Under the pieces are notes generated by a model. It did no database searches. It was not told where the DNA came from and saw nothing but the letters and a program-made list of their open reading frames with translations. Below are positions 6,275 through 60,196 of a DNA stretch of 64,000 bases, one piece after another; positions within the stretch are counted from its first letter, which is position 1; each line of letters starts with the position of its first letter. The DNA is from Candidatus Marinacidobacterales bacterium (GTDB lineage: Bacteria; Acidobacteriota; Vicinamibacteria; Marinacidobacterales; SMYC01). Both the position numbers and the translations under genes were made by a program. The stretch covers positions 1,408,001-1,472,000 of the forward strand of contig CBDCYI010000005.1 in assembly GCA_965224085.1 (NCBI GenBank). The letters run 5' to 3'.

Positions 6275-6861
6275 CTGAGCGGGTGCGCTCCATCGCCTAA
6301 AGGCGATGGGTTCGCGGGCGACTAAAGTCGCCTAAAGGCGCACGGCGGAGGATTACTCGCTTACCCTGAACGACTCGTCGTCTTCCGGCAGCTCTCCTTG
6401 CAGCTCGATGTACTTGGCCACAACCTCATCGGTCACGTTTCCGCTCGTCGCTACAAAATAGCCGCGCGCCCACAGGTGCCGACCCCAAAACTTCTTGCGG
6501 ATCGCTCGAAAATCACGCATCAGCTTGTGCGATGTCTTCCCCTTGATCGCCTGCATTACTCGGCTCGGCGACAGCCGTGGCGGCACGCTCAGCAACAGAT
6601 GAACGTGCTCTGGCCGTACATGGCCCTTCAGTATTTCTATGTGGTGCGTCGCACAGATCTCTCTTATCAACTCCCGCAGGCGAAGTGCTACATCTCCTCT
6701 CAATACCGGCTTGCGGTACTTCGGGATGAATACGAAATGGTAGTTTAATTGATACGTCGTGTGCGATGATTTCCGATATCCTTTCATCCGGGGATCGTAC
6801 CGCAAGCCTCCTAAAGGCTTCGCCTGAAGGCGAGGGGTTTCAACCATCCCCGAGTGAGACA
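6275..6861 (-). mobile_element. IS200-type element (tnpA only)
   Basis: Subterminal hairpins at both ends (6290-6339; 6804-6834). On the minus strand it begins after TTAG and ends with TCAG. Confidence 0.8.
6353..6787 (-). CDS. tnpA: IS200/IS605 Y1 HUH transposase
   Basis: YHFVFIPKYRK, HUH motif EHVHLL, LWARGYF..T.G, catalytic YIELQ. Confidence 0.95.
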   Translation of the reverse strand: MKGYRKSSHTTYQLNYHFVFIPKYRKPVLRGDVALRLRELIREICATHHIEILKGHVRPEHVHLLLSVPPRLSPSRVMQAIKGKTSHKLMRDFRAIRKKFWGRHLWARGYFVATSGNVTDEVVAKYIELQGELPEDDESFRVSE

Positions 6862-6863
6862 CT

Positions 6864-7131
6864 AAAACGCTCGAGACCGTTTCGGGCTTGATGAACCTCG
6901 TCATGCTGCCCATGTGGCTTCTCGGCGGCATCTTTTTTTCTTACGAGCGCTTTCCCGAAGTCGCGCAGCCTTTTATCCGGGCTTTGCCGCTCACGCCTTT
7001 GAACGACGCACTGCGAGCACTCATGCTCGAGGGTCTCCCTTTGGCGTCACAGGGGGCCCGAGCTCGCGATCCTGTCAGCCTACGCGATCGTGACTTTCGG
7101 CCTAGCGCTTTGCTGGTTTCGCTGGACCTAA
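6864..7131 (+). pseudogene. C-terminal fragment of ABC-2 type permease
   Basis: KTLETVSGLMNLVMLPMWLLGGIFFS..RFP...LPLT.LNDALR; frameshift in the G5 run at 7052-7056 restores ...ALCWFRWT*; 5' part is replaced by the IS200. Confidence 0.8.
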
Positions 7132-7142
7132 GGGCCTGAGAG

Positions 7143-8537
7143 TCAGCCCGTACCCGATACGGATTCCTTCTCGTGCGTGTCCCTCTGCTTTCGGGGGTCG
7201 ATGAGGCCGTAATCCTTGATCTTCTTGTCGAGCGTGGGGCGGGTGATGCCGAGGACTTCACTCGTGCGGGATTTGTTCCAGTGCGTTTGCTTGAGAACGT
7301 GGTCGATGTAACGCCGCTCCATCTCTTTGAGCGTCGTGAGCTCTTCGGTCACGAGGCCGGTGCCCGCCGCTTCGGAGCGCAAGAGCGGCAAGTGCTCCGG
7401 AAGCAAGACGTCGCCATGAGCGAGCGTCACGGCGCGGGTGAGCGCGTTCTCGAGCTCGCGAACATTGCCTTTCCAGGCGGAGTTCACGAGCATCGTCAGG
7501 ACGCTGTCGGGCACTTTACGCACGTTGGTGTGCAGCTGGCGGTTGATCTTCTCGAGGAGGTAGGCGACTAGATCGGGGATGTCTTCACGGCGTTCGCGGA
7601 GCGCGGGAAGCTTGATCTCGACGACTTTGAGTCGGTAGTACAGGTCTTCGCGGAAGAGACCTTTGCGCACGAACTCTTCGAGATCGCGGTTCGTGGCGCC
7701 CACGATGCGAGCCTCGGTGTGTTGGAGTCGCTCGCCGCCCACGCGTGAGAACTCGCGATTCTCCACTACGCGCAAGAGCTTCGCCTGGAGACTAGGGGAG
7801 ATGTCGCCGATCTCGTCGAGAAAGAGCGTTCCTTTTCGCGCGATCTCGATCTTCCCTCGGCTGTCGCGCACCGCGCCGGTAAAAGCCCCTCGAACATGGC
7901 CGAAGAGCTCGCTTTCGAGAACGCCTTCGGCGAGCGCTGTGCAATTGACGGGGACGAAGGGCTCTTCTCTGTTGACGGAGTTGTAGTGGATCGCTCGAGC
8001 CACGAGCTCCTTGCCCGTGCCGGATTCGCCACCGATCAAGACGGTCGTCGTGCTTCGCGACAGCATGCCGATCGTCTTGAAGACTTCGCGCATCCCCGGG
8101 GTGCGCCCGACGATATTGTCGATGCTGAAGCCTTGGGACGCCTCGGTAACGAGGTAGTCGAGCTTGGTGTCCATTTCCATCATCCGATGGGCTTTTCGGA
8201 TGCTCAGGAGAAGCTCGTCATAGTCGATGGGCTTGCAGATGTAGTCGAAGGCACCGAGCTTCATCGCTTGGACGGTAGTCTTCATATCGTCGAAGGCTGT
8301 GATCATAATGACGTACGCTTTGTCATCGATCTCGCGGATGCGCTTCAAGACGTCGATGCCGTCCATGACGGGAAGATGGATGTCGAGAATGACGAGGTCC
8401 GGCTCGTTTTGCTGGAATTTCTCGACGCCTTCCCCGCCGTCGGCGGCGAGCGATACGTCGAAGCCTTCACTAGCGAGATGCGTTTTGAACGTTTGTCGTA
8501 TCAGACGGTTGTCGTCGATGACAAGAATCGATTTCAT
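7143..8537 (-). CDS. Sigma-54-dependent response regulator (NtrC/AtoC family)
   Basis: REC domain, GESGTGKE, GAFTGA, FLDEIG, C-terminal Fis HTH. Confidence 0.96.
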   Translation of the reverse strand: MKSILVIDDNRLIRQTFKTHLASEGFDVSLAADGGEGVEKFQQNEPDLVILDIHLPVMDGIDVLKRIREIDDKAYVIMITAFDDMKTTVQAMKLGAFDYICKPIDYDELLLSIRKAHRMMEMDTKLDYLVTEASQGFSIDNIVGRTPGMREVFKTIGMLSRSTTTVLIGGESGTGKELVARAIHYNSVNREEPFVPVNCTALAEGVLESELFGHVRGAFTGAVRDSRGKIEIARKGTLFLDEIGDISPSLQAKLLRVVENREFSRVGGERLQHTEARIVGATNRDLEEFVRKGLFREDLYYRLKVVEIKLPALRERREDIPDLVAYLLEKINRQLHTNVRKVPDSVLTMLVNSAWKGNVRELENALTRAVTLAHGDVLLPEHLPLLRSEAAGTGLVTEELTTLKEMERRYIDHVLKQTHWNKSRTSEVLGITRPTLDKKIKDYGLIDPRKQRDTHEKESVSGTG

Positions 8538-48521: not shown

Positions 48522-49592
48522 CTAGTGGGCTGTAACAGCTGAACGTTTAGTAGTTTTGATGCGCCGTGACGGATCGTTGTAGGTCCACTTCACGGGCTTA
48601 GGGTCTTTGTTGTACTTGCGAATGTAGCGCATGATCTTGCGGGTTAGGTCTTTGGTGGAGGTGAACACTCCTCGATGGATCAGGTCGCGCTCGATCTTGG
48701 AGAACCAGAGCTCGACTTTGTTCAGCCAGGAGGAGTAGGTGGGTGTGAAGTGCAATTGGAGTTTCGGATTGGCCTGGAGGAACTCGGTGACCTTGGCAGT
48801 TTTGTGGGCCGAGAGATTGTCGAGGATGACGTGAATTTCACGCTTTCGCTTGTGGCTCGCAACCAGCTGCTCCAAGAAGGCGACAAACTCCTGGCTGGTA
48901 TGTCGGCGGACGGTCTTGCCAAAAACTTCCCCCGTCTTCGTGTCAAAGGCGGCGTAGAGAGAAAGCGTTCCATTCCGGACGTACTCGAAACCGTGTCTTT
49001 CGGCCCGCCCGGGAGACAACGGCAAGATCGGGTCCCGTCGATCCAGGGCTTGGATCGCCGTTTTCTCGTCAATACAAAACACCGCAGCGTGCTGAGGCGG
49101 ATTCATATAGAGACCGATGACATCCGCTGCCTTCTTCTCGAAATCCGGGTCGTTGGACGCTTTGTAATATTCAATTCGGTGTGGCTGTAGACCGTGTTTT
49201 TTCCAAGTACGAGCCACCATCATGTGATGGATTCCCAGTTTCTTCGCAAGTCGGCGCGTGCTCCAGTGAGTCGAGCCGTCGGTCGGGCTCTTTTGAGTCC
49301 ACGAAAGAATCCGTGCTTCCATCCGAGGCGTGAGCACCTGAACCGGACGTCCCTCGTGACGCGAGTACAGACCTGCCAGCCGCTCCTCCAAGAATCGGCG
49401 CTTCCACTTGCTGACAAAAGGCGCCGTGCAGCCTACCCACTGCTGCACCTGCGTGTAGCTCGCACCTTCGTCCAACAAGAGCAACACGCGAGCAATCCGC
49501 GCGTCGTCAGCACGACCGCTACGGCTCGAAACTCGTTTGCCAAGTTCCCTACGTTCCGCTCGAGTCAAAACAACGCTGGTCCTCTCTTGCAT
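48522..49592 (-). CDS. IS630 transposase
   Basis: HTH WS.R.LA, DEK..IQAL, ILDNLSAHK, HFTPTYSSWLN.VE; the stop codon TAG comes from the target end. Confidence 0.95.
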   Translation of the reverse strand: MQERTSVVLTRAERRELGKRVSSRSGRADDARIARVLLLLDEGASYTQVQQWVGCTAPFVSKWKRRFLEERLAGLYSRHEGRPVQVLTPRMEARILSWTQKSPTDGSTHWSTRRLAKKLGIHHMMVARTWKKHGLQPHRIEYYKASNDPDFEKKAADVIGLYMNPPQHAAVFCIDEKTAIQALDRRDPILPLSPGRAERHGFEYVRNGTLSLYAAFDTKTGEVFGKTVRRHTSQEFVAFLEQLVASHKRKREIHVILDNLSAHKTAKVTEFLQANPKLQLHFTPTYSSWLNKVELWFSKIERDLIHRGVFTSTKDLTRKIMRYIRKYNKDPKPVKWTYNDPSRRIKTTKRSAVTAH

Positions 49593-52556: not shown

Positions 52557-53696
52557 GTGGTGCGACTCATTGTTCTTTCTTTCATCAGTGCGGGGCTGTA
52601 TGCGTTGCTTGCGGTTCGGAGTGATGTGGAGCGTTCCGGGCTCTTCGAGCAGAGTGTCGAGTTCTACGTCCTTTGGATCGGGCTCTTCATCGCTTACGCC
52701 ATGGCCATTCGCACGGCCAGCCGAAAAAACGACACGGCGGTCTATGCGGTTGTTTTTCTTACGGCCGCCGGTTTTAGGGCGACACAGTTTCTCGGCAGCG
52801 GGCTTCATCATTCGGATGCAGCCGTCTTTTTGCACGGCGCCACGCCGTGGTCCGTGCTTTTCGACCACGTCGAGGCCTCGTTCGAGGCGAGACGTCTCGC
52901 CGCGACGGCCGCCGATTTGGCCTCGCTTCTGCTCGCGCCTTCCTTGCTGCGCGCCGCAGGCTTGCCGATAGGCGCTGCACTCATCCACGGGTGGAACCCT
53001 TTCATCGTCAAGGAAGTGGCGGGGAGCGGGCGACTCGACGCGGTCGCGCTTTTCTTCTTGATCGCGGCGCTCAGGCTCGCTCAGACGCCCCGGTTCACGG
53101 GCGCCGCCGCGGTCGCGTACGGCGTCTGCCTCAACGGGCCGCTCATGCTCGCGGGATCTCTCCCGCTCATGGGACGCGCGCTCCGCGGCTTTGTCGCACC
53201 TGCGCTCATCATCGGCCTCCTAGGCTGGACGCTCACTTTCCCCGGTTCCTGGCTCATCCGCGCCGGGTGGCCGCCAGAAAATTCTCTTGGCGGAAGCCTC
53301 ACGCCCGCGCTTCAGACACTGGCAGGACTCTTCTTGACCCGCCATCCGACGATAACCCTTCTTGCGACGCTTCTGCTTTGGCTCGTCTGGTCTCTTCGGA
53401 CGGCTACCCGATCGCAGGACCCGAAGCGTTGGCCGCTAGGGACCCTGGTCGTGCTCGGCAGCTTGGTCTTCGTGATGCCTCAGGTGCTGCCATGGGCGTT
53501 TCTCCTCGTCGGCACACTGGCGCCGTATTCCGAGAATCGTGGATGGCTCGTTTTCACCGCCACGGCGCCACTGACTTATCTGGCGTTCGGTGACGGTGCC
53601 TACGGATTTTGGCTGGGCTTCAGTCAGTACTTCGCTGCCTACGCGGCACTGATTTTCTTCGGACTCGGTAGCCCGCCGCGCGCAGCGGCGGGCTAA
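52557..53696 (+). CDS. Membrane protein, GT87/DUF2029-like
   Basis: Multiple TM segments, WNP..VKEVAGSG.LD, PQVLPW. Confidence 0.65.
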   Translation: MVRLIVLSFISAGLYALLAVRSDVERSGLFEQSVEFYVLWIGLFIAYAMAIRTASRKNDTAVYAVVFLTAAGFRATQFLGSGLHHSDAAVFLHGATPWSVLFDHVEASFEARRLAATAADLASLLLAPSLLRAAGLPIGAALIHGWNPFIVKEVAGSGRLDAVALFFLIAALRLAQTPRFTGAAAVAYGVCLNGPLMLAGSLPLMGRALRGFVAPALIIGLLGWTLTFPGSWLIRAGWPPENSLGGSLTPALQTLAGLFLTRHPTITLLATLLLWLVWSLRTATRSQDPKRWPLGTLVVLGSLVFVMPQVLPWAFLLVGTLAPYSENRGWLVFTATAPLTYLAFGDGAYGFWLGFSQYFAAYAALIFFGLGSPPRAAAG

Positions 53697-53705
53697 CGTT
53701 TCCGA

Positions 53706-54059
53706 CTAGGTTCCCCAGAGCACTAGAAAGATGATGAAAGCGATGAGCAGCACGTAGATGACGAGCGACTCGATGAGAGCGAGACCGAGAATCAGTGCGA
53801 AGCGGATCTCGCCGGAAGCGCCAGGATTTCGAGAAATGCCGTCACAGGCGGCCGCGATGGCACGACTCTGAGAGTAAGCGCCCGCGGCGGCGGCGATTCC
53901 AAGCGCAAAAGCGCCCGAGAACAAGGCCCATTTGTACATTTCCGACGACCAGCCAGTTATCGGGTCGTGCCCCCCCTGAGCCTCCTGAGCAAAGACGGGC
54001 GCGACCAATACAAAAAAGGTGACGGCTGAGAATGTCGCCAGCATAACTTTTCTAACCAC
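53706..54059 (-). CDS. atpE: ATP synthase Fo subunit c with N-terminal extension
   Basis: RNP loop, LALIESLVIY; GGAGG SD upstream of GTG. Confidence 0.95.
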   Translation of the reverse strand: MVRKVMLATFSAVTFFVLVAPVFAQEAQGGHDPITGWSSEMYKWALFSGAFALGIAAAAGAYSQSRAIAAACDGISRNPGASGEIRFALILGLALIESLVIYVLLIAFIIFLVLWGT

Positions 54060-54106
54060 CAGGTTTCCTCCTGGAAAAGGGATCACGACAATAGGAGTCC
54101 TCGAAC

Positions 54107-54802
54107 TTAGTGCTCCTCGGAAGCGACGGCGCCACCGAGGTAGACCATGGTCAACATGATGAAAACGAAAGCCTGCAAAATTCCCCCAAAGACACCGAAG
54201 AGCATCATGGGCACTGGAACGAGGAACGCCACCATCACGCCGAGCGCAGCGATGACGAGCTCCTCACCAAAGATGTTGCCGAACAAGCGCAGCGATAGTG
54301 AAACGATACGGCTGAAGTGGCTGATGAGCTCGATCGGCAACATGAGGGGTGCCAGCACTGGAAGAGGTCCCAGGAAGTGCTTGAAATAGTTCCCGGCGCC
54401 TTGGGCACGGATGCCCTGATAGTTGTAGTAGAGAAAAGCTACCAGAGCGCAACCAAGCGTCATGTTCAAACTGGTTGTCGGCGACGAAAAAAAAGGCACG
54501 AGGCCAATCAAATTACTCATCAGGATGAACAAACCCAGCGTACCGACGAGGCCCAGAAACGGCCTTCCTTTGGTGCCGATATTGTCGACGAGCAGGCCCT
54601 GGAGCACGCTCACGATCGCCTCGAGCACCAGCTGCAGCTTCCCGGGGTTCTCGACGCTGATACGCCCGCGGAACCAGATCGCGAAGCCGGCGAGCACCAT
54701 CGCGACGAACACCGCCATGATCAGATGATCCGGCACCACTTCGTGATGAAAGTAGTGCTCGAGCCAGTGATAGATGAACGACTTGTGCTCTAGCTGCTCC
54801 AT
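54107..54802 (-). CDS. atpB: ATP synthase Fo subunit a
   Basis: NLIGLVP, SLSLRLFGNI, LQAFVF..LT..Y. Confidence 0.96.
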   Translation of the reverse strand: MEQLEHKSFIYHWLEHYFHHEVVPDHLIMAVFVAMVLAGFAIWFRGRISVENPGKLQLVLEAIVSVLQGLLVDNIGTKGRPFLGLVGTLGLFILMSNLIGLVPFFSSPTTSLNMTLGCALVAFLYYNYQGIRAQGAGNYFKHFLGPLPVLAPLMLPIELISHFSRIVSLSLRLFGNIFGEELVIAALGVMVAFLVPVPMMLFGVFGGILQAFVFIMLTMVYLGGAVASEEH

Positions 54803-54897
54803 AACTACATGTTAGTCACTCGAGAAGACCGAGCGCCCACAGCCCCTTCAACGTGTTTTCCATGACGGGGAAGCGGTTGACGAACCGCAGGGAGGTG

Positions 54898-55323
54898 TCA
54901 TGCCGTGGGGGTGTTCTCTACTGACCTTTCTTTACGCTCCGCTTTCGACTCCCGGTAAGCCAAGCGAGCATGGATGCCACACTCGACGAAAACCGCGGCT
55001 ACTGGCACAGAAAACCCGAGAGCCAGGCCAACAAAGTTCGCGTGCCAAACGCTGATTATAACAAACAGGGCGATACTCAACAAGATGTAGCGGACCAGCA
55101 CGCCGAAAAGCCCCAGCCAGGACACCCGACCGGGCCGCTCTGACGTGAGCTTTTTCACCAGCCGGGCGAGAACATCGAGATTCGCCATGGACAAAAGGCC
55201 TCCAGAGAGCACCCCGAGAAAGAACGGAAACCCATAGATAAAGCCAAAAAGAGCGAAGATCGCGGTCGCCCACCATGCGTGGCGCCGAAAGCGGGCCATC
55301 GAAACATCTGGGTCGAGATTCAA
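54898..55323 (-). CDS. atpI: ATP synthase protein I
   Basis: Four-TM protein directly upstream of atpB. Confidence 0.8.
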   Translation of the reverse strand: MNLDPDVSMARFRRHAWWATAIFALFGFIYGFPFFLGVLSGGLLSMANLDVLARLVKKLTSERPGRVSWLGLFGVLVRYILLSIALFVIISVWHANFVGLALGFSVPVAAVFVECGIHARLAYRESKAERKERSVENTPTA

Positions 55324-55565
55324 TCGTTCTTGTCGAAAGCTTTCACGGCCTTGAGGAGGTTGAAGAAGCCGGCAGCAACACCAAAAAGAAGACCGAGCAG
55401 CGTCAACCAGGGAAACGTCGCTAGTTTTTGGTCCAGGTAGTGGCCGGAGAATCCGCCCACTGCAATAGAGACGGGGAAGATGAAGGCAAGGCTCGATAGA
55501 AGCGCCAAACGCGCCCGCGGAGAGACGGGAGGCGGCTTCTTCTCCTCCAGGCCCTCCCGGGACAT
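55320..55565 (-). CDS. AtpZ/AtpI (ATPase gene 1) family protein
   Basis: G..G.YLD.KL.T.PW..L.GLLFG..AGF pattern. Confidence 0.85.
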   Translation of the reverse strand: MSREGLEEKKPPPVSPRARLALLSSLAFIFPVSIAVGGFSGHYLDQKLATFPWLTLLGLLFGVAAGFFNLLKAVKAFDKND

Positions 55566-55574
55566 GGACCTCGT

Positions 55575-57143
55575 CTAGTTGCCGACCGGCGTCGCCGCCG
55601 TAGCGGGTACAACGGCTTCAACGCTTGCCGTTTGCGTGCCATGGATCCGCGCCATGATCGCCTCGACCGGCACCCGTAGCGGCGCGAGAAAGGGCTTCGG
55701 GTAGACGCCAATCCAGATGCAAAGCACGACGAGCGGAACCAACGTCGCTTGCTCGCGCAAAGTAACATCCTTGAGCTTCTCGTTCTCCGGCTTGTCGATT
55801 TTCCCGAACATCACGCGCTGATACAGCCAGAGCAGATAAGCCGCGCCGAGCACGATGCCCGAGACCGCGAACAGCGCGTACCACGGACCCGCATGCGTGC
55901 TCGCAAACGTGCCCTGCAGGATCATGAACTCGCCAATGAAACCGTTCAAGAGCGGCAGCCCCATCGAAGCCAGAGCGATAATGAGAAAAAGTGCCGCGAA
56001 GACGGGCACGACTTTCGCAATGCCGCCATAGGCCGCAATTTCGCGCGTATGCGTCTGCTCGTACATGATGCCGACGATGAGGAAGAGTCCGCCCGTCGCC
56101 AGGCCGTGATTGACCATCTGCAGGATGCCGCCCTGAAGCCCGAGCTCGGTGAGAGCGAAAACGCCGAGCATGACGAAACCGAGATGGCTGACGGAGCTAT
56201 AGGCGACGAGCTTTTTCCAGTCGGGCTGGACCAGCGCGACGAGGGCTCCGTAGATGATGCCGATAACCGCGAGCACGAGAATGTACCACCCGAATTCCTG
56301 GCTCGCCTCGGGGAGCATAGGAAGCGAAAACCGCACGAAGCCGTAGGTTCCCATTTTCAGGAGGACTCCAGCCAGGATGACCGATCCAGCCGTGGGCGCT
56401 TCGACATGGGCGTCCGGAAGCCACGTGTGAAACGGGAACATCGGAACTTTGATGGCGAAGCCGATGAAAAACGCCCAGAACACCCAGTTCAGCTCTGGAC
56501 CATAGTTAATTTCCCATAGCTTTGTGATGTCGAACGTCGGAAAACCCATCTGGACTATGTGCTCGAAATAGACCGCGAGGATTCCGAGGAGCATCAAAAC
56601 GCTCCCCACGAGCGTATAGAGGAAGAACTTGATCGCGGCGTAGAGCTTCCGAGGGCCGCCCCAAATGCCAATGAGGAAGTACATCGGGACGAGCATGACT
56701 TCCCAGAACACATAGAACAGAAAGAAGTCGAGCGTCACGAAAACGCCGAGCATGCCCGTCTGCAGGAGCAGCATGAAGACGTAGTACTGCTTGATACGAT
56801 CGGTGATCGCGTTCCAAGAGGACAAAACGGCAATGAACCCAAGAAGCGTCGTCATCATAACGAGCAGCAGGCCGATCCCGTCCAGGCCGAGGTTGTAACT
56901 AACGCCGATACTCGGTATCCAGTCGAATGTCTCGCGAAACTGAAACTGCGTTCCGTTGTTGTCGAACAAAAACCAAAGAGGTAGCGAGAACAAGAAAGCC
57001 ACGAACGTGATGATGTTCGCGGCCCATTTGATCGCTTTCTCCTGGGTCTTCTTCATGAAGAAGAGGATGAAGAGCGCGCCCAGTGCTGGGAACCAGACCA
57101 CGAGCCACGACAAGTAAGGGAAACCGAATACGTTATTCTCCAT
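55575..57143 (-). CDS. nuoM: NADH-quinone oxidoreductase subunit M
   Basis: FYVFWE..LVPMY, IKVPMFPFHTWLPDAHVEAPT, LLKMGTYG, AYSSVSH, F.GEF. Confidence 0.96.
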   Translation of the reverse strand: MENNVFGFPYLSWLVVWFPALGALFILFFMKKTQEKAIKWAANIITFVAFLFSLPLWFLFDNNGTQFQFRETFDWIPSIGVSYNLGLDGIGLLLVMMTTLLGFIAVLSSWNAITDRIKQYYVFMLLLQTGMLGVFVTLDFFLFYVFWEVMLVPMYFLIGIWGGPRKLYAAIKFFLYTLVGSVLMLLGILAVYFEHIVQMGFPTFDITKLWEINYGPELNWVFWAFFIGFAIKVPMFPFHTWLPDAHVEAPTAGSVILAGVLLKMGTYGFVRFSLPMLPEASQEFGWYILVLAVIGIIYGALVALVQPDWKKLVAYSSVSHLGFVMLGVFALTELGLQGGILQMVNHGLATGGLFLIVGIMYEQTHTREIAAYGGIAKVVPVFAALFLIIALASMGLPLLNGFIGEFMILQGTFASTHAGPWYALFAVSGIVLGAAYLLWLYQRVMFGKIDKPENEKLKDVTLREQATLVPLVVLCIWIGVYPKPFLAPLRVPVEAIMARIHGTQTASVEAVVPATAATPVGN

Positions 57144-57152
57144 GCACCGTTC

Positions 57153-59240
57153 CTACGTCCAAAGGTAAAAGTAGAAAAAGCCGATGAGCGCCCCGACACC
57201 GATGAGCATCATCAGCGCATAGTTCTGCAAGACGCCCGTCTGCAAGCGGCTGAAAGCGTTGGAAAAGCTCGCCAAGATCCTCCAGACCGCGTCGACCGCG
57301 CCGTCCACGAGCCCCACATCTGCGAGATTCGATAGATCGCCAGACAAGAGCGTCGCCTTGGCCGCACCGTTGACGACACCGTCGACGACCTTGGCGTCGA
57401 TAAAGTTCAGCCCGTGCGCGCCAGAGAGCGTTCCGCCGCCGACCGTCGTATCGTAGACGTCGTCCACAAAATATTTGTTGTAGAGCAAGCGATGAACGCC
57501 GGGCCAGCTGGCGATGACGGCCCTGTCCCCATCGGGATTCGCGAGGTACATCTTCCTCGCGAGTAAGATGCCCGCGATCGCAACGCCCAAGGAGACGATC
57601 ATGAACGGTAGCTCGTGCGCGACGCCCTCCATCGAGAAGTGATGCGCTTCGTGCTCGATCGTCTGGCCAGCGTTCAAGGCGGGCTCGAGAAACCCGTCGA
57701 TGGCCGACAGACCGAACGGAAGCCCAACCCAGCCCGCCGTCACCGACCCCACCGCCAGCACGATTAGGGGAACGGTCATGCTCGCGGGAGACTCGTGGAG
57801 GTGACTCTCCATTTCCTTACCGCCGCGGAACTCCCCGTAAAAGGTCAAGAAGACTTGCCGGAACATGTAAAAGGCGGTCATGCCCGCCGCCGCTACCGCG
57901 ACCAGCCACAAGACCGTGACGTGCCCGTCATTCGTGGCTCCCCACAGAATGGCGTCCTTGCTGAAGAACCCGGCGAAGGGCACGATGCCGGCGATGGCTA
58001 GAGTCGACAGGAAATACGTGATGAACGTGCGCGGCATGTACTTCTTGAGCCCGCCCATGTTACGCATGTCCTGCATCGCGTTGTAGTCGCGACGGCCGCC
58101 CGACGCGTGCTCGGCGTGCTCCATCGTATGGATCACGCTTCCGGAGCCGAGGAAGAGACAAGCTTTGAAAAACGCGTGCGTCATGAGATGAAAGATCGCG
58201 GCAGCATAAGCCCCGACCCCTAGACCAAGAAACATATAACCGAGCTGCGACACGGTCGAGTAAGCGAGAACCTTCTTGATGTCGTTTTGGAAGAGACCAA
58301 TCGAAGCGGCGAAAATCGCCGTGCTGCAGCCGATTACGGCAACGACAAGCATCGCGTTCGGCGCGTGCGTGAACAGCACCGAAGTTCGGGCCACCATGTA
58401 GACGCCCGCCGTGACCATCGTCGCGGCATGGATGAGCGCGGAGACCGGAGTCGGACCTTCCATCGCGTCGGGGAGCCAGACGTAGAGCGGGATCTGAGCG
58501 GATTTGCCCGTCGCACCGACGAAGAGCAAGAGCCCAATGAGCGTGAGAACGCCCCAACCCGCTTCAGGCGTCGGAAACTGCGCCTCCACACCTTGCATGA
58601 CTGCGTAAAAGTCGACCGAGCCGAACTGGAAGAAGATGAAAAAGATCCCCAGCATGAAGCCGGCATCCCCGATGCGATTGACGACGAACGCTTTCTTTCC
58701 CGCTTTTGCCGCGGCATCCCGCTCGAACCAAAACCCGATCAAGAGATAAGAGCAAAGACCGACGCCTTCCCAGCCAATGAACATCAGAAGGAAGTTGGCG
58801 CCGAGCACCAAGTTCAACATGAAAAAGGTGAACATGTTGAGGTAAGTGAAAAAGCGCCAATAGCCCCCGTCGTGGGCCATGTAACCGACCGAGTAGATGT
58901 GGATGAGAAGTCCGATGCCCGAGACGACGAGCACCATGACCATGGAGAGCGAGTCGAGGCGGTACTGCCATTTGGCGGTGAAGTTCGCCGTGGTGCCGTC
59001 GGCCTGAGCCACGCTCATGCCGGGGATCCAAGTAAAGAGTGTTTTCTCGAGAACGGTCTTCTCGCCGCCTTCCGACATGAACGGACCGAAGAGGCAAAAA
59101 AGAGCGATCAGAAAAGAGAGCGCGACGGCCCCGACCGCGACCATGTTGATGGCGGATTTAGGCAGGCGCTTGCCGAAGAGCCCGTTGATGATGGCCCCGA
59201 CACCGGGGATAAGCGGAATGAGCCAGAAATATTCACTCAC
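57153..59240 (-). CDS. nuoL: NADH-quinone oxidoreductase subunit L with extended lateral helix
   Basis: GWEGVG, NRIGD, GKSAQ.PL..WLPDAMEGPTPVSALIHAATM, HAFFKA, QTG..Q.YA. Confidence 0.96.
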   Translation of the reverse strand: MSEYFWLIPLIPGVGAIINGLFGKRLPKSAINMVAVGAVALSFLIALFCLFGPFMSEGGEKTVLEKTLFTWIPGMSVAQADGTTANFTAKWQYRLDSLSMVMVLVVSGIGLLIHIYSVGYMAHDGGYWRFFTYLNMFTFFMLNLVLGANFLLMFIGWEGVGLCSYLLIGFWFERDAAAKAGKKAFVVNRIGDAGFMLGIFFIFFQFGSVDFYAVMQGVEAQFPTPEAGWGVLTLIGLLLFVGATGKSAQIPLYVWLPDAMEGPTPVSALIHAATMVTAGVYMVARTSVLFTHAPNAMLVVAVIGCSTAIFAASIGLFQNDIKKVLAYSTVSQLGYMFLGLGVGAYAAAIFHLMTHAFFKACLFLGSGSVIHTMEHAEHASGGRRDYNAMQDMRNMGGLKKYMPRTFITYFLSTLAIAGIVPFAGFFSKDAILWGATNDGHVTVLWLVAVAAAGMTAFYMFRQVFLTFYGEFRGGKEMESHLHESPASMTVPLIVLAVGSVTAGWVGLPFGLSAIDGFLEPALNAGQTIEHEAHHFSMEGVAHELPFMIVSLGVAIAGILLARKMYLANPDGDRAVIASWPGVHRLLYNKYFVDDVYDTTVGGGTLSGAHGLNFIDAKVVDGVVNGAAKATLLSGDLSNLADVGLVDGAVDAVWRILASFSNAFSRLQTGVLQNYALMMLIGVGALIGFFYFYLWT

Positions 59241-59327
59241 AATCGACGCTCGCTATTGGCGAAAACAGGATGAGACGAACGGAAAGGGCGATGAGGTTCC
59301 TTTCCGCGTTATCAAAACGAATCGCAT

Positions 59328-59357
59328 TTTATAGCACCCGGCCGTTATTGTTGTCAA
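59328..59357 (-). promoter_or_regulatory. Sigma-70 promoter of the nuoLM-atp operon
   Basis: Minus strand TTGACA-N18-TATAAA with TGn extended -10. Confidence 0.7.
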
Positions 59358-59405
59358 GGTTCTGTGGGCCGGCAACGCCCTCGTTATGCGTTGAAAAGCC
59401 AGCAG

Positions 59406-60196
59406 TTACACGCCCTTGACCGCTCCGCCGTCAATCTGAATGCAAGCGCCCGTCACGTAGCTGGCCCGCTCCGAGCAGAGAAATACAACTACAGAGGCGA
59501 ATTCTTCGGGGCCCCCCAGGCGGCCCATTGGGATTTGGTCGGTCCATCGTCTGAAGATGGTTTCTTTCGGGACACCATCCTGCTCGCTCATGCGCTCGGC
59601 GAGATCGACGAGGCGGTCGGTTTTCGTGTAGCCTGGGCAAGCGACGTTCACACCTATTCCGTGCGGCGCGAGCTCGTTCGAAAGAGACTTCATCAGACCT
59701 ACGACGCCCGATCGCGCCGTGTTCGACAGGATCAGCCCGTCGATGGGCTGTTTTACTGAGATAGAGGCGATCGCGACGATCCGGCCCGAACGTCGCACTC
59801 GCATGCCCGGAACCACCGCCCGGCACAAATGGATCGTTGATAGCAAGTTGAGCTCGAGCCCTTGCCGCCAAGCGTCGACGTCCGTGGTCTCGAAACGGCT
59901 GGCGGGTGGCCCCCCCGCGTTGGCTACGAGGATATCGATGCGGTCGAAACGCTCAGTCGCCGCGTCGACCAGGTGGCGGACGTCCTTTTCCTTCGTGACG
60001 TCGGTAGGAACCGCGAGAACGTCACCGTTCGCTGATTTTCGAATATCTTCCGCAGCCGCTTCGAGGACCACCTGGTCTCGCGAGGCGACGACGACGTGGG
60101 CTCCCTCCGTGGCGAGGGTCTCGCGGCCACGGATTTTCCCAGGCCCCGGCTCGCGCCCGTAACGAGCGCGACTTTGCCCACGAGACCCAGATCCAT
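59406..60196 (-). CDS. SDR family oxidoreductase, frameshift near 60125
   Basis: MDLGLVGKVALVTGASRGLG in one frame; NAGGPP, SNTAR, PG...T, DGG in the next. Confidence 0.88.

Follow-up and report, generated by a model that had tools for sequence, protein, structure and literature searches.

We analysed a 64,000-nucleotide window from the genome of a Candidatus Marinacidobacterales bacterium (assembly GCA_965224085.1; the window is G000:C5:1408001-1472000) and specifically an operon on its minus strand, in which six same-strand genes, nuoL, nuoM, atpZ, atpI, atpB and atpE, follow one another between positions 53706 and 59240. Gaps of 9 nt separate nuoL from nuoM and nuoM from atpZ, the start of atpI overlaps the stop of atpZ by 4 nt, and 95 nt lie between atpI and atpB; within the window there is neither a nuoA-K set upstream of nuoL nor a nuoN downstream. 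This order, the 9-nt gaps and the lack of other nuo genes alongside had been described in an earlier note made from the sequence alone, and gene calls and profile scores bear them out. We read the operon as the distal membrane-arm genes of a complex I of the 11-subunit type, which lacks nuoE, nuoF and nuoG (EFG-less), joined to the genes for Fo subunits a and c of ATP synthase, and not as an add-on cassette; we put the probability of this reading at about 0.85.

The operon and the complex I inventory of the genome

The whole NuoL protein scores above both curated cut-offs (NF005141 and TIGR01974), and NuoM passes that of TIGR01972 (Table 1). The best solved relatives of NuoL are NdhF1/NuoL chains, the top one being 6hum_F (E 6.4e-136). 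Mrp antiporter models score 288 against a cut-off of 937 and lower, and the best Mrp model for NuoM reaches 203 against 542; no mrpB, mrpC, mrpE, mrpF or mrpG lies nearby, and the neighbours are unrelated. Nor do the window genes belong to the "Green complex I" type, as the NuoL is a full NuoL and not two MrpD-like subunits. The genes atpZ, atpI, atpB and atpE stand in the order of an atpZIBE operon, the other atp genes being in a second operon.

Across the genome (95% complete, 12 contigs), genes with the antiporter-like domain PF00361 occur at four places only, and NuoH at two. Contig C11 carries a nuoA-B-C-D-H-I-J-K-N cluster without nuoL, nuoM, nuoE, nuoF or nuoG, in which a 3-nt gap separates nuoK (ends 9398) from nuoN (starts 9402). 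The longest nuoH open reading frame (ORF) begins about 105-111 nt before nuoD ends (L014 5713-6897 / 6786-8036; also L140-L142), and tblastn covers the resulting N-terminal NuoH extension of ~90 residues in relatives, with an identity of 57-93%; either the long overlap is conserved or nuoH truly starts later.

Contig C4 holds a second complex I set in an unusual order (G000:C4:1313666-1328730; L013 1666-16300 and beyond): nuoJ-K, an MrpD-like gene (491 aa), an 87-aa ORF, another MrpD-like gene (590 aa), nuoM-N-A-B-C-D, a fused nuoEF, nuoG-H and an I-like gene. The 590-aa MrpD-like protein bears a C-terminal lateral helix, the set has four antiporter-like subunits of its own, and the only other nuoM in the genome sits here. 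This cluster fits the Green complex I type described for rhizobia, in which two MrpD-like subunits take the place of NuoL, according to the excerpted text of 10.1101/2021.11.15.468770. Away from the nuo clusters, a NuoEF-like and NuoG-like pair (G000:C4:1103033-1105584), 40% and 29% identical to those of the C4 cluster, might feed the EFG-less complex as an input module or belong to a hydrogenase or formate dehydrogenase. The remaining PF00361 site is an Mrp antiporter cluster (E, G, B, B, C, D, D; G000:C11:1518000-1526000, L015 10167-17696), whose third antiporter-like gene lies in two frames (PF00361 matches in frames of 281 and 355 aa), by frameshift or sequencing error.

Because L and M are precisely what is missing from the C11 set, and the C4 set is complete without them, the window nuoL and nuoM would be the C11 complex's own. 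The earlier note had imagined a canonical complex I elsewhere in the genome that these two genes could upgrade. Neither the C11 cluster, without L and M, nor the Green-type C4 set, with its own pumps, answers to that description. As for ATP synthase, atpZ, atpI, atpB and atpE are single-copy in the genome and atpF'-F-H-A-G-D-C lies at C5:2192421-2198467, about 730 kb from the window operon, and the Fo genes of the window are therefore those of the only ATP synthase in the cell.

Upstream of nuoL, a 165-nt spacer contains the promoter-like motif TTGACA-N18-TATAAA that the earlier note had pointed out, identified at 59357-59328 by eye only. A consensus promoter scan of 53400-59700 gave zero matches against 1.8 expected by chance, and this motif went unlisted because the scanner accepts only T at the end of the second hexamer. 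The hairpin past atpE overlaps the end of a convergent ORF (52557-53696); a scan for T-run terminators did not list it, and it may act as a terminator. In the atpE ORF, the c domain spans residues 58-119 and is preceded by a hydrophobic, signal-like N-terminal extension of about 45-55 residues; close relatives match from residue 4-12 onward, and translation may in fact begin at a GTG or ATG some 30-42 nt downstream. The operon is flanked by a short-chain dehydrogenase gene upstream and a convergent membrane ORF of no Pfam family downstream. A DDE_3-family transposase gene with HTH domains (48522-49592, minus strand) lies ~4 kb past the atpE end.

Table 1. Features of the nuoL-nuoM-atp operon, in positions of the window
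Feature	Position	Strand	Remarks
nuoL	57153..59240	-	695 aa, long-lateral-helix type; NF005141 710.6 bits (cut-off 556), TIGR01974 710.2 (cut-off 407.5)
nuoM	55575..57143	-	522 aa; TIGR01972 630.6 bits (cut-off 263.8)
atpZ (ATPase_gene1 family)	55320..55565	-	81 aa; PF09527, 60.1 bits
atpI	54898..55323	-	141 aa, TTG start; PF03899, 37.5 bits
atpB, Fo subunit a	54107..54802	-	231 aa; PF00119 176.9 bits; TIGR01131 134.5 (cut-off 102.6)
atpE, Fo subunit c	53706..54086	-	longest ORF 126 aa; PF00137 44.9 bits
Promoter-like motif TTGACA-N18-TATAAA	59328..59357	-	read directly in the spacer upstream of nuoL
25-residue insertion in lateral helix HL of NuoL	57324..57398	-	residues ~615-639; the gap can be shifted by a few residues
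GC-rich hairpin	53670..53694	-	10-bp stem, 5-nt loop, no T run; 12 nt past atpE stop

Gene order in relatives and across Acidobacteriota

A NuoL scan with one genome per species returned 21 acidobacterial loci (62-86% identity), labelled Vicinamibacteria or Ca. Marinacidobacterales/Marinacidobacterium, and 59 Bacteroidota loci (45-53% identity). The order nuoL-nuoM-atpZ-(atpI)-atpB-atpE, in one direction, was found at 20 of the 21 acidobacterial loci, and the 21st stops at a contig end after nuoM. No nuoK before or nuoN after was seen within the 10-kb flanks of these 20 loci. Instead, nuoN directly follows nuoJ/K in all eight genomes of this layout that were followed up, six of which show the whole nuoA..K-N string. 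Three complete chromosomes of ~3 Mb (G002, G003 and G004) each carry only six PF00361 genes: the L and M that precede the atp genes, a single nuoN and a trio of Mrp-like genes. Further nuoL or nuoM copies, or a second complex I, are absent from them. These three also have no Complex1_51K (NuoF) domain anywhere, and are thus without an NADH-oxidising module of the complex I or Hox type. Judged by gene content, L and M of the atp operon would in these relatives serve a single complex I that has no such module. Since these close, small-genome relatives have no NuoF domain, the electron donor of the complex is probably not NADH.

We then surveyed gene order across the phylum in a sample of 121 Acidobacteriota genomes, from which 35 further nuoL loci were fetched (31 long-helix and 4 short-helix). 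The common layout is nuoA-B-C-D-H-I-J-K-L-M-N, with atpZ, sometimes atpI, atpB and atpE directly downstream on the same strand. The atp genes are co-directionally downstream at 21 of the 31 long-helix loci and at none of the 4 short-helix loci, and no atp gene lies within 10 kb of nuoL at any of the 59 Bacteroidota loci (L040-L099; canonical nuoA-N where complete). The position of atpB relative to nuoM was also counted, leaving out two unpublished genomes and G000. Among 109 genomes with atpB, 55 were informative, with atpB and a listed nuoM on one contig, and in 51 of these atpB was co-directionally downstream of nuoM within 10 kb. The nuoM-atpB gap was 1.5-4 kb, which leaves room for nuoN, in 33 genomes, under 1.5 kb (the L-M-atp form) in 12, and 4-10 kb in 6. 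In three of the other four informative genomes the two genes share a contig but are not co-directional, and in one they are 164 kb apart.

The survey shows that the join to atpZ-I-B-E is old and conserved phylum-wide, and that the window holds the split form of a phylum-wide nuo-atp supra-operon, nuoABCDHIJKLMN-atpZ(I)BE. A split nuo operon had been offered in the earlier note as the mundane alternative; it proves correct, as C11 holds the other nine genes. The self-standing L-M-atp operon is thus a recurrent, stable form of an old arrangement. Given that the K-L-M-N order is universal, we infer that the contiguous nuoA..N-atp form is ancestral. Five more L-M-atp genomes have no nuo genes upstream of nuoL within 7-12 kb, and a contiguous K-N-L-M-atp intermediate, sought upstream of nuoL, was absent from all five informative loci (L145-L149). 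One origin of the K-N plus L-M-atp layout and several are both compatible with the data.

Two further arrangements were encountered. At G006:C22:47363-62300 (L150), a divergent atpB (33% identity) has nuoM immediately upstream of it, and the 12 kb before nuoM hold no nuoL, which makes this another variant of nuo-atp linkage. In one family of the same class, G049, G078 and G115 (L101, L118 and L119) carry a contiguous nuoA..N with a long helix and no atpB match at E <= 1e-10; L101 and L119 have a-like matches of 25-26% near the nuo cluster, which may mean a different ATPase type.

The NuoL lateral helix and the number of NuoM

The lengthened NuoL lateral helix (HL) noticed earlier is real and has the length reported for 2M complex I, a form with an additional NuoM. 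By alignment, the helix is 25 residues longer than in eight Bacteroidota NuoL and 29 longer than in E. coli NuoL, and in the same alignment the insertion is absent from the helix-bearing subunit of the genome's own Green-type set. HMMER aligns one M. smegmatis NuoL helix segment twice to the query, 26 residues apart, and when the query is aligned with cyanobacterial NdhF1 and Paracoccus NuoL, 25-29 of its residues find no counterpart at the insertion site. We measured helix length as the number of residues between two conserved anchors in NuoL. This distance is 77 in the window NuoL, 48 in E. coli and 51-53 in 10 Bacteroidota NuoL. In the long-helix acidobacterial class it is 77-79 in 45 of 49 NuoL and 86-88 in 3, the single exception being L023, which has a frame break (L033 and L037, with NuoL frames broken in ORF extraction, were left out of this count); in all, 48 of the 49 are of the type that is 25-26 residues longer. 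Four other acidobacterial NuoL measure 51-53; two come from EFG-containing clusters and two are of a short type with no upstream nuo genes detected in the fetched stretch. In the long-helix class there is no EFG at the D-H junction wherever the fetched stretch shows that junction.

An AlphaFold2 model of NuoL built on a 34-row alignment (predicted local distance difference test, pLDDT, 81.9; predicted TM-score, pTM, 0.83) had NuoL/ND5/NdhF chains as its top Foldseek matches. The model places the insertion within a continuous helix (H589-641), followed by H646-667 and the last transmembrane helix, H672-693, with pLDDT of 44-71 in the insertion and below 50 for residues 632-675. At 1.5 A per residue, simple arithmetic gives ~38 A added by 25 helix residues. 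An internal-repeat test made a 26-27-residue register of VDD/VDG motifs visible; shuffles gave p of about 0.04 for segments 2 vs 3 and nothing for other pairs, and we do not claim a duplication.

According to the excerpted text of 10.1101/2021.11.15.468770, a 26-residue HL insertion occurs in all clusters with an additional pump subunit, and the same insertion occurs without an extra pump in NuoL of two Manganitrophaceae complexes, which may be evolutionary intermediates. 2M complex I is also covered in the available parts of PMC12342949, PMC7419157 and PMC11636273; the first describes Nitrospirales 2M clusters with separate nuoC and nuoD and no nuoEFG, and the last a complex I with duplicated nuoM in Acidobacterium capsulatum. 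The operon studied here has the ~26-residue NuoL insertion, and the C11 cluster has separate nuoC and nuoD and no nuoEFG. The earlier note had credited the operon with both parts of a 2M enzyme, a long-helix NuoL and an additional nuoM; the former stands and the latter does not. A single nuoM follows nuoL, the three small relatives have one nuoM in all, and two nuoM in one locus were seen at 0 of the 35 phylum loci. Likewise, no tandem nuoM pair was found among the 150 nuoM matches listed for the 121 genomes (24 more were unlisted), at one to three per genome, and no duplicated-nuoM cluster of the A. capsulatum type was met among these listed matches. A two-copy NuoM complex prediction (residues 12-505) returned a score of 0.00 and was made without control runs, so that it is neutral either way.

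Interpretation and comparison with known systems

We propose that one transcript would start in the spacer ahead of nuoL and end at the hairpin past atpE, and that the 9-nt gaps and the 4-nt overlap in it would favour coupled translation. NuoL and NuoM would insert in the membrane and join the C11-encoded module to form the EFG-less complex I, and AtpZ, AtpI, a and c would combine with F1 and the stator parts encoded by the second atp operon. In the present lineage and in several further families, nuoN now comes after nuoK and L-M-atp stands by itself, a layout that we take to be derived from the contiguous one. Conservation of the join may reflect selection for joint production of the distal pump modules and the Fo proton path, and the 9-nt gaps make co-regulation with Fo plausible.

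Several points weigh against this account. As to co-transcription of nuoL-nuoM with the atp genes, the one RNA run that contains the sequence (X21, as contigs) offers just two short perfect matches, within nuoM and nuoL, and no contig that crosses from nuoM to atpZ; the 95-nt atpI-atpB spacer could hold a second promoter. Assembly of L and M with the C11 set is deduced from complementarity of gene content, and a further nuo gene could lie in unassembled sequence. In other genomes, genes were annotated by tblastn with this genome's proteins and not by gene calls. The atpB count contains 40 of 109 genomes that are uninformative, with atpB and nuoM on different contigs, and 14 without a listed nuoM, and related genomes are non-independent observations in all phylum counts. 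Finally, the K-N plus L-M-atp layout occurs in families labelled as different classes, so that a single ancestral rearrangement is no obvious explanation.

The length of the helix raises the question of what it spans. We lean towards one each of L, M and N, with the helix anchoring further along the arm or representing a stabiliser or evolutionary intermediate. It is possible, though unlikely in our estimate, that the single nuoM product is used twice, filling four antiporter-like positions L-M-M-N and raising H+/2e- as proposed for 2M. The size (25-26 aa) and site of the insertion are as in the extra-pump clusters of 10.1101/2021.11.15.468770, as far as its excerpted text goes, although the same text treats the orphan insertions of Manganitrophaceae as possible intermediates. 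The helix is held at its length in NuoL down to 44% identity, as expected of a ruler, and the Green-type helix-bearing subunit of the same genome, which needs to span only M and N, has no insertion; no extra membrane gene lies in either cluster. Against double use stands the want of a second nuoM beside the long NuoL, both at the phylum loci and among the listed matches, and we know of no complex I with one gene filling two positions. Conservation speaks for double use, in that NuoM is the best conserved pump across the phylum (52-66% identity, vs 44-58% for L and 34-44% for N), but the argument is weak because among pump subunits ND4/NuoM is in general the one that varies least. We consider it improbable that some other protein occupies the slot. 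A broader conjecture, which we hold doubtful, is that the EFG-less complex I of Acidobacteriota is a four-slot pump made from three pump genes, its helix docking a second NuoM or an unrecognised co-encoded partner, with the Fo fusion setting the ratio of pump to consumer in one transcript.

The idea with which the earlier note began, a self-standing cassette that adds a long L and an M to a canonical complex I elsewhere, or a separate antiporter module, is not supported and now seems highly improbable. It could draw on an operon that stands alone with its own promoter-like motif, on a NuoL helix of 2M length and on a large genome that holds a second complex I cluster. However, that C4 cluster is already provided with four antiporter-like subunits and with a helix-bearing subunit of its own, the C11 cluster is without L and M altogether, and in the three small relatives L and M are the sole copies, with no second complex I to receive them; an antiporter module is further contradicted by the low Mrp scores and the lack of accompanying mrp genes. 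A chimeric contig or a recent rearrangement of no significance has next to no likelihood. The nearby transposase gene and the assembly in 12 contigs would fit such an artefact, but the same order recurs in 20 of the 21 relatives' loci, including complete chromosomes, and in further families. The junctions are also spanned, without differences, by contigs from public DNA runs: X1 (53600-56705), possibly the source sample itself, and X4 (56682-57288, in which one letter differs).

All genes belong to known families, and the EFG-less nuo operons and the two-part atp layout of Acidobacteria are already in print. Specifically, the excerpted text of Hausmann et al. (10.1101/197269) gives nuoACDHJKLMN operons without EFG together with atpZIBE and atpF'FHAGDC operons, and that of PMC4154653 the c/b split of atp genes in the phylum. 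A full-text literature search, which did not extend to Chadwick et al. 2018 and bioRxiv supplements, found no paper on nuo-atp adjacency and none on a 2M-length insertion with a single nuoM across a class. New with respect to that literature are EFG-less complex I genes directly upstream of atpZ(I)BE in most Acidobacteriota, with a sub-form that keeps nuoL-nuoM only, and a long-helix class of NuoL with a 2M-length insertion where one nuoM is encoded. The join offers a natural example in which one operon combines a proton pump with the proton path of ATP synthase, and the long helix with a single nuoM allows a direct test of whether the lateral helix is a strict ruler for pump-subunit number.

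Among the known systems close to this one are the acidobacterial operons of Hausmann et al. and PMC4154653, and the window genome has both the EFG-less nuo genes and the two-part atp genes; nuo-atp adjacency, the L-M-only form and helix length go unmentioned in the excerpted parts of those papers. 2M complex I (Chadwick et al. 2018, ISME J) likewise has a NuoL lateral helix some 26 residues longer than usual, has nuoC and nuoD as separate genes and lacks nuoEFG, but here there is no second nuoM in any acidobacterial locus examined, and the genes lie at two loci and are joined to atp. The Complex_I_1 and Complex_I_2 NuoL of Ca. Manganitrophaceae likewise have the HL insertion without an extra pump gene; they belong to another phylum, with no atp linkage mentioned in the excerpted source, whereas here the insertion is fixed in the EFG-less enzyme of a phylum. 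Canonical nuoA-N (E. coli; Bacteroidota L040-L099) has orthologous subunits and the same K-L-M-N logic, but its fourteen genes, EFG included, form a single operon, its helix is short (48-53), and atp genes do not occur close by (0/59). Finally, cyanobacterial and plastid NDH-1 is also EFG-less, is ferredoxin-linked and has its ndh genes scattered over several loci, whereas cyanobacterial NdhF1 is without the insertion, the window NuoL having ~29 extra residues; to our knowledge, no NDH-1 genes are fused to atpB and atpE in the manner of this operon.

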